From IMG/VR virus record IMGVR_UViG_2917860307_000003, positions 1 to 25,564 of that record: a stretch of 25,564 nt of DNA, one strand, 5' to 3'. Numbering within the stretch: position 1 is the first letter of the stretch; every line of letters starts with the position of its first letter. Made by a program: the position numbers and the translations under genes. The DNA comes from a virus. Taxonomy: Duplodnaviria; Heunggongvirae; Uroviricota; Caudoviricetes. Positions 2,854 to 4,633 of this stretch are shown here, one piece after another. The notes beneath the pieces were generated by a model, which saw only the letters and a list, made by a program, of their open reading frames with translations, was not told where the DNA came from and did no database searches.

Positions 2854-3002
2854 CACATCTGAATTTCACTGCGCACCCCACGCGCACATTATCACCCGAG
2901 CCTTTCAGAAAGTTGAGCCTGAGAACTGCCGTATATGGTGGCGACCATCTCGGGGCGGCTTTTCTGTGGGGCAGGCTCAATTTTCTAAAAGGTAATAGCG
3001 CT

Positions 3003-3500
3003 ATGAAAGCAATCACGCTTTTTAATACACCGATCCGTGTTGATGAATCAGGAATGATCTGCCTCACTGACATGTGGAAAGCTAGTGGTAAAAGTGAATC
3101 TGAATCGCCGTACCACTACCTGCGAAACAAGCAGACCAAAGAGTTCTTGGCTGAGCTGGAGAAAAACCACGAATCTGTGGTTTTTACGGAACGCGGTGTG
3201 CACGGTGGAACTTATGGAGGAAAGTTCGTTGCTTATGATTACGCAGCATGGCTAAACCCTGAATTTAAATATGCAGCCTATAAAGTCCTCGATGACTACT
3301 TCACCGGAGAGCTTCAGCATCGCAGCAGCTTAAGTGCACAGCTCAATATGAAGTGTCACGAGTTTGATCAGAAGAAAGATATGGCGAGCTTTTGCGGGCA
3401 GGGACTGGCTGCTTGGCGTTACACCAAGCCAGTTCTGATGGCTGAAATTAGTAACCTGGCTACCCAGCTGCAGCTCACAATACCCGGGCTGCATTCATAA
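3003..3500 (+). CDS. KilA-N (APSES-type) DNA-binding domain protein
   Basis: 165-aa ORF from ATG 3003; N-terminal pattern (ICLTDMWKASGKS…YLRNKQTKEFLAEL…GGTYGGKFVAYDYAAWLNPEF) matches the KilA-N domain as I recall it; the track's upstream extension from 2820 looks non-coding. Confidence 0.55.
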   Translation: MKAITLFNTPIRVDESGMICLTDMWKASGKSESESPYHYLRNKQTKEFLAELEKNHESVVFTERGVHGGTYGGKFVAYDYAAWLNPEFKYAAYKVLDDYFTGELQHRSSLSAQLNMKCHEFDQKKDMASFCGQGLAAWRYTKPVLMAEISNLATQLQLTIPGLHS

Positions 3501-3550
3501 GCGCTCGAATCAATATGCCTACCACACCACTCGTGTGCGGATGAACAGTG

Positions 3551-3679
3551 TCAGCTCATGTAAGACAGCAGATGGTTCAACCATATGTGGAAGTGTTCCA
3601 ATATCCAATTTGCGCAAAGCTTTATTATCATCTTAAGTAAGATATTGATTATCAGATTGATTAAATAATCTTTTTTCAT
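3551..3679 (-). CDS. Candidate small hydrophobic peptide (42 aa) in an AT-rich island; speculative
   Basis: Minus-strand ATG at 3679 with GAGGG 4 nt upstream; my translation is MKKDYLINLIINILLKMIIKLCANWILEHFHIWLNHLLSYMS; below the 60-aa cutoff of the supplied track. Confidence 0.25.
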   Translation of the reverse strand: MKKDYLINLIINILLKMIIKLCANWILEHFHIWLNHLLSYMS

Positions 3680-3773
3680 AATCCCTCTTCAATATTCAGT
3701 TTTAATGGAGGGAAGAATGCGGAGTTTGTGATTTGCGTTGTAGACAGAGAAGAGTTAAACGAGTCGATTTATC

Positions 3774-4124
3774 ATGCCTGCCTTAATCCCCAGAGCCTGC
3801 CGTGTTCGTGGCTGCCGCCATACCACCACAGACCCGTCAGGCTACTGCGAAAGCCACAAAAGCGAAGGCTGGAAGCAATACAAGCCAGGACAATCCCGTC
3901 ATCAGCGCGGCTACGGTTCGAAGTGGGACAGTATCCGCGCGCGTGTCCTGAAGCGTGACAAAGGCCTGTGTCAGTTATGTCTGCGTTCTGGTGTGGTGCG
4001 TGAGGCGAAAACTGTTGACCACATCATCCCTAAAGCGCATGGCGGCACTGATGCTGACAGTAATCTGCAGAGTCTGTGCTGGCCGTGCCATAAGGCGAAG
4101 ACGGCCCGTGAACGGTTAAAGTGA
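3774..4124 (+). CDS. HNH endonuclease (phage packaging-associated)
   Basis: 116-aa ORF with Cys-rich N-terminus and HNH core (VDHIIPKAHGGTDADSNLQSLCWPCHKAKT); sits immediately upstream of the terminase genes, as in HK97-like cos phages. Confidence 0.85.
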   Translation: MPALIPRACRVRGCRHTTTDPSGYCESHKSEGWKQYKPGQSRHQRGYGSKWDSIRARVLKRDKGLCQLCLRSGVVREAKTVDHIIPKAHGGTDADSNLQSLCWPCHKAKTARERLK

Positions 4125-4140
4125 TAATAATTCTCAACTG

Positions 4141-4215
4141 TCTGAGGGGAGGGGCGGGTCAAATCCCTGTGACCTGACGTCTTCCGGACTGCCCGCCCCA
4201 TCGTTTTTTTATACC
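4141..4215. other. Structured GC-rich element between HNH and terS; candidate cos/packaging site or terminator
   Basis: Perfect inverted repeat GGGGCGGG (4151-4158) / CCCGCCCC (4192-4199) enclosing an inner GGTCA/TGACC pair and a GACGTC palindrome, followed by a 7-T run (4204-4210). Confidence 0.35.
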
Positions 4216-4249
4216 CGCGAAAAATGAAATTTAACCAGGAGTGCCGCAT

Positions 4250-4633
4250 ATGGCTGGAACGGCGGGGCGTTCCGGGCGTCGCCCCAAGCCAACGGCGCGC
4301 AAGGCGCTGGCCGGAAACCCCGGCAAGCGAGCCCTGAACAAAGATGAACCCGTTTTTACGCCCATCAAAGGTGTTGAGCCACCGGAGTGGTTCGCTGAAG
4401 AAGAGCTCCCTCTCGCCACGATCATGTGGCAACTGACAACCAAAGAACTCTGCGGTCAGGGCCTGCTGTGCGTGACTGACCTCGCAGTGCTTGAGCGGTG
4501 GTGCGTAGCCTATGAGTTCTGGCGACGTGCCGTGAAAAATATTGCCAGACAGGGCAACACCATCACCGGTGCAATGGGCGGCATGGTCAAAAATCCGGAG
4601 CTGACCGCCAAAAAGAACAGGAGTCCGAGATGA
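4250..4633 (+). CDS. Terminase small subunit (P27/HK97 gp1-like), N-terminal frame; probably continues by a -1 shift to 4743
   Basis: ATG 4250 preceded by AGGAG; Arg/Lys-rich N-terminus (MAGTAGRSGRRPKPTARKALAGNPGKRAL) typical of this family; stops at 4631-4633 while a clean 42-codon continuation exists in the -1 frame. Confidence 0.8.
   Translation: MAGTAGRSGRRPKPTARKALAGNPGKRALNKDEPVFTPIKGVEPPEWFAEEELPLATIMWQLTTKELCGQGLLCVTDLAVLERWCVAYEFWRRAVKNIARQGNTITGAMGGMVKNPELTAKKNRSPR

Follow-up and report, generated by a model that had tools for sequence, protein, structure and literature searches.

What does the AT-rich gap between the KilA-N gene and the HNH endonuclease gene of this prophage contain, and is the short, hydrophobic reading frame on its minus strand a gene or an accident of composition? 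The window, i.e. the whole stretch of DNA that was analysed (25,564 nucleotides), covers the late region of a lambdoid prophage of E. coli whose packaging genes are of the HK97 type. Its left side comprises genes for a methylase, a holin, a lysozyme, an Rz-like lysis protein, DUF6979 (2437-2811) and KilA-N/ORF11CD3 (3003-3500). After a gap of 273 nt, these are followed by the genes for the HNH endonuclease (3774-4124), a P27-family small terminase, the large terminase and the portal protein, with the HNH gene and the P27-family small terminase gene forming one packaging module. All of these genes lie on the plus strand and, hence, the gap is transcribed within the late operon. The gap and its two neighbours are the following:

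3003-3500, plus strand: KilA-N/ORF11CD3 gene, left neighbour (PF04383, 7e-17; PF10549, 3.7e-13; annotated by PGAP in six genomes)
3501-3773, no strand assigned: lineage-specific island of 273 nt (GC 0.377; found in 6 of 5426 complete genomes of E. coli)
3774-4124, plus strand: HNH endonuclease gene, right neighbour (PF01844, 1e-16; megablast)

The position between a KilA-N and an HNH gene, as given in a preliminary description of this DNA, is borne out by the Pfam matches (PF04383 together with ORF11CD3 on the left, PF01844 on the right). That description had also spoken of an AT-rich island, which is correct on average (GC 0.377 versus 0.53 for the whole window and approximately 0.50 and 0.57 for the flanking genes) but not for the island as a whole, as GC content is uneven within the gap and only its middle part is strongly AT-rich (0.49 in 3501-3600, 0.25 in 3601-3700 and 0.40 in 3701-3773).

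At about 3490, roughly 10 nt before its stop codon, the KilA-N gene loses its homology to the many other KilA-N genes (HK620 hkbK, Stx phages, HK97 p60), and homology of the HNH gene to 735 other E. coli genomes starts at about 3751-3774; hence, the island is a private segment at a mosaic joint. It is confined to one rare E. coli prophage lineage. All six complete genomes harbouring it carry it at the same KilA-N/HNH position, at least 98% identical and unannotated, while it is missing from the 735 genomes with a homologous HNH gene and from about 390 genomes with the KilA-N gene. Two IMG/VR contigs also contain the island. No match was obtained among 50,697 phage records, and a plasmid collection afforded only weak, chance-level AT-rich matches (Staphylococcus, Acinetobacter). 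Likewise, a peptide-pattern scan of GTDB (one genome per species, 185,579 species) yielded no copy, an 18-mer scan of GTDB gave 15 matches, which equals the chance expectation and involves unrelated taxa throughout, and a 20-mer scan of JGI metagenomes gave six matches, all unrelated. In a large assembly collection, about 1000 index blocks contain the exact KilA-N allele; the 24 contigs read comprised six places and 18 similar ones, and all six places displayed exhibited the 273-nt gap without a called gene.

In related prophages, the same slot is filled differently. HK620 and Stx phages carry hkbL on the plus strand after the KilA-N gene, without similarity to the island. In E. coli H9Ecoli (locus L041, 2518-2892), an AT-rich reverse-strand gene (GC 0.34) for a hypothetical protein of 124 aa is found, and in O157 strain JEONG-1266 (locus L019, 3783-4010) a reverse-strand YlcI/YnfO gene. 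This suggests that the slot upstream of the HNH/terminase module is a hotspot for reverse-strand morons, the occupants of which are mutually unrelated. A decayed copy of hkbL was rejected as origin of the island, given neither nucleotide nor translated similarity, and so was a fragment of the H9Ecoli 124-aa gene, of YlcI/YnfO or of a hypothetical protein from a further locus (L003), again for lack of similarity. Possible scars of insertion, namely a 19-nt flanking direct repeat (3505-3523/3764-3782, 74% identical) and inverted repeats of 9-10 nt, are both at chance level for AT-rich DNA.

The genes around the island display several peculiarities of their own. About 20 nt past the DUF6979 stop codon, a GC-rich hairpin on the plus strand (2829-2855; GGCCUCGCU-UUU-AGCGGGGCU, followed by UUUUU) has the appearance of an intrinsic terminator (fold of 2812-2870, z -4.3), and was not reported by the consensus terminator scan. 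Further downstream, a hairpin of approximately 90 nt (plus strand, 2900-2993; -46.7 kcal/mol, z -4.1, none of 200 shuffles as good) precedes the KilA-N start codon at 3003, its 3' arm overlapping the ribosome binding site AAAGG of this gene and continuing into UUUUCU. More than 900 complete E. coli genomes, K-12 DH5alpha among them, contain DNA 85-95% identical to 2900-3007 directly in front of a Rha-family, a GIY-YIG or another KilA-N gene, and an alignment of seven sequences revealed compensatory double changes in 12 of 31 pairs, mostly stemming from a diverged O157 copy. No matching Rfam family was found. This hairpin resembles a leader with conserved structure (attenuator or translational switch) that is common to alternative morons past the lysis cassette. 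At the other side of the gap, the HNH gene itself has no clear Shine-Dalgarno (SD) sequence. A near-perfect ribosome binding site and start codon on the plus strand (GGAGGG-AAGA-ATG, within 3707-3731) opens an ORF of four codons only (MRSL, stop at 3729-3731), which is in frame with the HNH gene and lies 42 nt 5' of its ATG at 3774; in H9Ecoli, a short upstream ORF likewise precedes the HNH gene. Finally, the small-terminase gene carries a 1-nt deletion at about 4611 compared with relatives L001 and L050 (130 + 37 aa instead of 164 aa), and a 1-nt insertion at about 6415, late in the large-terminase gene, reduces its product from 577 to 558 aa (same relatives). As draft assembly GCA_004745355.1 (contig PDIF01000039.1) is 100% identical to the window at both sites, either the prophage is packaging-defective or the indels are homopolymer errors in the assembly.

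On the minus strand of the gap, the following features were located:

3551-3679, minus strand: ORF of 42 codons plus TGA stop, candidate small membrane peptide (ORF list; GC1/GC2/GC3 of 0.26/0.14/0.52; open in 7 of 7 haplotypes)
3683-3687, minus strand: SD-like GAGGG, 3 nt before the ATG (read from the sequence)
3602-3664, minus strand: hydrophobic core LINLIINILLKMIIKLCANWI, codons 6-26 (one variable site in 63 nt, synonymous, at I13, position 3641)

The ORF runs from 3679 to 3551 and translates into the 42-aa peptide MKKDYLINLIINILLKMIIKLCANWILEHFHIWLNHLLSYMS. Upstream of the start, the sequence reads GAAGAGGGATT-ATG, with GAGGG at 3687-3683, three nucleotides and then the ATG; thus, ORF and GAGGG exist as described previously. 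The peptide consists of a basic N-terminus (MKK), a hydrophobic core of about 21 residues and a variable His/Asn-rich tail. Its hydrophobicity is genuine even for AT-rich DNA, as both the GRAVY value of 0.73 and the best 19-residue window of 1.92 exceed those of ORFs obtained by dinucleotide-shuffling the island (P 0.04 and 0.02, respectively). The term 'amphipathic' is not borne out, however, since the hydrophobic moment at the alpha-helical angle of 100 degrees is low (0.51); instead, polar residues N8, N12, K16, K20, N24 and E28 recur with a strict period of four, giving a moment of 1.93 at 90 degrees. Five of the eight Ile codons are the rare ATA.

Two readings of this ORF come first. The AT-rich trough may largely be the footprint of a genuine, young, lineage-restricted, moron-like gene for a small membrane peptide running opposite to the late operon, a reading in which we place slightly less than even confidence. 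Alternatively, and quite possibly though with more doubt, the ORF is fortuitous. The island would then be non-functional filler at the joint of the KilA-N moron module and the HNH/P27-small-terminase module, passively transcribed in the late operon, and GAGGG as well as the hydrophobic translation would be accidents of AT- and T-rich DNA. The module borders, which fall exactly at the island edges (about 3490 and about 3751-3774), fit such filler, as do relatives in which KilA-N is followed by DNA unlike the island, e.g. hkbL. Moreover, the perfect SD sequence and ATG on the plus strand open only four codons and, hence, such signals arise here without a gene. On the other hand, phage genomes rarely retain 273 nt of inert DNA.

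The length of the frame, which had initially been regarded as unexpected in such stop-rich DNA, does not discriminate in favour of a gene. When 5000 dinucleotide-preserving shuffles of the 273 nt were scored for their longest ORF, at least 42 codons were reached in 27% (ATG starts) or 43% (ATG, GTG or TTG starts), so that the ORF is of ordinary length (P 0.27-0.43), just as expected for a fortuitous one. Composition by codon position is far harder to reconcile with an accident. The AT-richness of the ORF resides in codon positions 1 and 2 (Ile, Leu, Lys, Asn), while position 3 matches the genome in GC content. The difference between GC3 and the mean of GC1 and GC2 amounts to 0.32, compared with 0.025 +/- 0.09 in shuffle-derived ORFs of at least 35 codons (P approximately 0.001), and P is still 0.0055 among equally hydrophobic null ORFs, although these P-values are somewhat optimistic since codons are not fully independent, as indicated by a weak 24-nt periodicity (lag-24/lag-12 autocorrelation, P 0.04 after lag correction). 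The phase signal is limited to 3560-3679 with none on either side, i.e. it is bounded by the ORF, and chance would rarely produce an asymmetry confined in this way (P 0.001-0.005). In foreign AT-rich DNA, GC content would be lowest at position 3; the trough is therefore better explained by the coding of this frame than by foreign origin, and with a GC3 of 0.52 the GC deviation reflects amino-acid composition instead of a foreign mutational bias. As regards the periodicity, lag-12 matches cluster at codon position 2, and a hydrophobic-hydrophobic-polar-hydrophobic peptide pattern fits better than a DNA repeat; a tandem DNA repeat was sought with TRF, which detected none. Combining features, 2.5% of shuffles contain an ORF of 42 or more codons that starts with ATG and has an SD-like 4-mer, a share that drops to 0.07% if the observed GRAVY is required in addition. 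This joint null of length, SD and hydrophobicity (0.0007) likewise argues against a fortuitous ORF, and with the GC-phase criterion in place of GRAVY, none of 30,000 shuffles qualifies.

Conservation of the peptide frame in related prophages had been proposed as a check. From about 27 loci, seven haplotypes coding for five peptide variants were obtained, and the ORF is intact in all of them. As these haplotypes are near-identical, the check has almost no power: seven random substitutions would spare the ORF half of the time (P 0.5), which renders its intactness uninformative. Within the ORF, six non-synonymous changes (at 101 non-synonymous sites) and one synonymous change (at 22 synonymous sites) give an overall dN/dS (omega) of about 1.3, again in line with a fortuitous ORF; under strong purifying selection with an omega of 0.2, at most one synonymous change out of seven would have a P of approximately 0.013 (hand calculation). 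The placement of the changes, in contrast, is non-random and speaks for a gene. The non-synonymous ones, D4K (2 nt), Y5H, L27W, H31Y and H36N, affect codons 4, 5, 27, 31 and 36 but none of codons 6-26, the chance of sparing the latter being about 0.016-0.03 with core limits that were set after the data had been seen. This is a post hoc hint that codons 6-26 are under constraint. Furthermore, in the most divergent haplotype (L008/L012), 7 of 23 bases differ in the patch 3668-3690, while ATG and GAGGG are unchanged; the chance of sparing these eight positions in a hypervariable patch is about 0.03 (hand calculation, C(15,7)/C(23,7)). The start region of this haplotype reads AAGGAGGG-TAC-ATG and thus contains a stronger SD sequence. 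Plus-strand ORFs of the island were rejected for want of a start codon or SD sequence, including the frame that shares the GC-rich third codon position; the latter is interrupted by TAG in two haplotypes, whereas the minus-strand ORF is open in all. Taken by generic coding criteria, ribosome binding site and start codon are retained among variants and composition has period three, but neither purifying selection (dN/dS <1) nor homologues in other lineages were found.

Such homologues were sought extensively. A word-indexed search of 5.8 billion clusters and a HMMER search over 1.84 billion representative proteins both returned only a 93%-identical variant of the peptide (P0001). Pfam, NCBIfam and PADLOC gave no match, and PHROGs a single non-significant one (E 0.29). 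The likeness to membrane-active toxins or regulatory peptides suggested in the preliminary description hence finds no counterpart in these searches, which revealed no link to any known family of this kind. PGAP left the gap empty in all six complete genomes with the island, and no gene is called there in ten further loci displayed with gene tables; a gene caller did call the ORF in nine Logan contigs, exclusively in the strong-SD haplotype (P0001). Regarding transcription signals, a consensus scan of 3300-4000 revealed no sigma-70-like promoter 5' of the ORF, and in a PWM scan the best usable upstream sites scored 3.5-5.4 compared with a median best of 5.5 per 250 nt of the window, promoter prediction being weak evidence in general. 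Downstream of the ORF, no minus-strand terminator was detected by the consensus scan, and the minus-strand fold of 3500-3560 is unremarkable (z -0.01). On the plus strand, TTGATT-15-TAATCT is the site most like a promoter, its score of 6.9 being of background level, and a terminator was not detected. Missing homologues, missing PGAP annotation and a scan-negative result for promoter and terminator all agree with a fortuitous ORF.

In sum, an ORF with SD sequence and ATG, codon-like composition and a hydrophobic translation is located in an insertion-like island of one lineage. As neither relatives nor a promoter were detected, it is to be regarded as a modest and unconfirmed candidate, the resemblance of which to a real gene for a small membrane protein nevertheless goes beyond what chance would give. 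Of the original case for a small hydrophobic-peptide gene, the argument from length was wrong, and what carries it now is codon phase, the retention of SD sequence and ATG and the restriction of amino acid changes to the tails. If the AT-rich trough does reflect such a gene, the peptide would be made in the lysogen while the late operon is silent, by analogy to lambda bor, the H9Ecoli 124-aa gene and YlcI/YnfO, and may insert into the inner membrane, where it may act as a mild toxin, as an exclusion factor or by modulating a membrane protein of the host. During lytic growth, convergent late transcription would shut off the ORF and, at the same time, yield a full antisense RNA.

Rather than a peptide, the island could provide function at the level of nucleic acid, an explanation we consider unlikely. 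Two further features bear on it:

3691-3746, no strand assigned: invariant block of 56 nt, 5' of the ORF on the minus strand (contains none of the 21 variable sites among the seven haplotypes)
3682-3713, no strand assigned: inverted repeat TCCCTCT/GGAGGGA (local folds of -9.7 kcal/mol on the plus and -8.8 kcal/mol on the minus strand)

Here, the AT core would serve as a protein-binding or bent-DNA site (IHF, Fur, H-NS), or 3691-3746 would modulate the stability of the late mRNA or the translation of HNH. In agreement with the former, the IHF core (WATCAANNNNTTR) is matched perfectly, at 13/13 positions, on the minus strand at 3650-3638 (P 0.039), and the Fur box at 14/19 positions at 3659-3641 (P 0.036), but these P-values are marginal and lose significance once corrected for the several motifs tried; DnaA-box and H-NS motifs are matched poorly (judged by eye only). 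The low-variation core 3602-3664 would suit a DNA site equally well as a hydrophobic peptide core. In favour of the latter variant, the block 3691-3746 is invariant across haplotypes, which at the island mean of 7.7% variable sites has a chance of about 0.011 (hand calculation); on the plus strand it contains GGAGGG (3707-3712) and the four-codon mini-ORF (ATG 3717 to TGA 3731), and the HNH gene has no obvious SD sequence. Structure does not help this case, since folding gave nothing significant on either strand: the whole island has z-scores of -0.56 and -0.27, local folds reach no better than -1.3, Rfam returned chance matches only (E at least 5.8), and an AU-rich hairpin followed by U6 (3639-3677) was rejected as not significant. 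The hairpin at 3682-3713 is not significant either (z -1.3 on each strand); in minus-strand RNA it would pair the SD sequence of the ORF with an upstream anti-SD, in the late plus-strand RNA it would involve the SD sequence of the mini-ORF. Two further points speak against a regulatory element. First, about 99% of the prophages that share this HNH/small-terminase module lack the island, which is therefore dispensable for late gene expression. Second, a binding site leaves the period-three composition of the ORF unexplained.

A more specific version of the peptide-gene interpretation, which strikes us as quite improbable, is a family-less type I-like membrane toxin or exclusion peptide, for which the convergent late transcript of the phage itself and an SD-masking hairpin would jointly act as 'antitoxin'. 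The respective UCCCUC/GAGGGA pairing has a predicted energy of -8.8 kcal/mol (z -1.27, with 13 of 200 shuffles folding at least as well). By default, late transcription yields RNA antisense to the ORF. The search for a dedicated overlapping antisense RNA, as recommended in the preliminary description, revealed neither an antisense RNA gene with promoter and terminator nor an Rfam match to an antitoxin RNA. If this version holds, the peptide would occur only in the lysogen or only upon aborted late transcription, and the prophage state would be linked to host membrane physiology.

That the island is part of the DNA packaging signal (cos plus accessory sites), as had also been considered initially, is hardly credible despite its vicinity to the packaging genes and an IHF-like site such as that contained in lambda cosB, since the 735 E. 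coli genomes that harbour a homologous HNH gene lack the island, and since it lies upstream of the HNH gene and not in the interval between HNH and small terminase, where the genome ends of HK97, the prototype of HNH-assisted cos packaging, are located. In HK97, the small terminase binds 15-29 bp downstream of the cut (PMC11331095). By this analogy, cos should here reside within 4125-4250, at least 350 nt from the island, a placement by analogy only because mapping cos via similarity to HK97 failed for lack of nucleotide similarity.

Should the small membrane-peptide ORF be real, the 'dark matter' of prophages would gain a further small membrane protein that had escaped annotation, and the locus would exemplify that an AT-rich 'intergenic' island can be the mere footprint of a hydrophobic mini-gene. 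Such a gene is invisible to homology-based annotation, the NCBI pipeline having missed it in all complete genomes with the island. If it is not real, the locus still cautions that ORF length and a hydrophobic translation are weak arguments in AT-rich DNA. Practical value is small, given that the element occurs only in a rare E. coli prophage lineage and no phenotype of it is known.

Compared with known systems, the candidate peptide shares several traits with the type I toxins of E. coli and its prophages, i.e. Hok/Sok including hokW-sokW of Sp5 (PMC8621323), TisB, Ldr, Ibs, ShoB, ZorO and DinQ. With 42 aa it is below 60 aa, it has a basic N-terminus and one predicted hydrophobic helix, it is encoded in a prophage, and its SD sequence could be masked by a nearby complement, though by a non-significant hairpin. 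As in TisB, polar and charged residues are embedded in the hydrophobic helix. Unlike these toxins, however, peptide and island match neither their families nor their antitoxin RNAs (Pfam, NCBIfam, Rfam); given the failed test of family similarity and no detected antitoxin RNA, the ORF is not to be filed as a type I toxin. DicB, another small prophage protein (PMC6832061), is soluble and unrelated to the candidate peptide. A parallel is provided by the small membrane proteins of E. coli cryptic prophages identified by ribosome profiling or tagging, which are likewise encoded by short, unannotated prophage ORFs with a plausible ribosome binding site; the ORF described here differs from them in being known from its sequence alone and in belonging to no family.

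A further comparison is that with the morons of lambdoid and HK97-like phages, as defined in PMC3594210, examples being lambda bor (3' of Rz, reverse strand) and HK97 gene 15. In contrast to morons, the ORF has no recognisable promoter or terminator and is far smaller than is typical, and the island was never seen in another context, so that there is no evidence of it moving as a unit. Measured against that definition, extra DNA and a deviant GC content are present, while a promoter and terminator of its own are absent as far as prediction tells. Like morons, the island is additional DNA missing from close relatives, its base composition is unlike that of its neighbours, and it occupies the well-known variable slot between lysis cassette and packaging genes. 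Like lambda bor, finally, the ORF is oriented against the late operon, at a position where related prophages hold other AT-rich reverse-strand genes.
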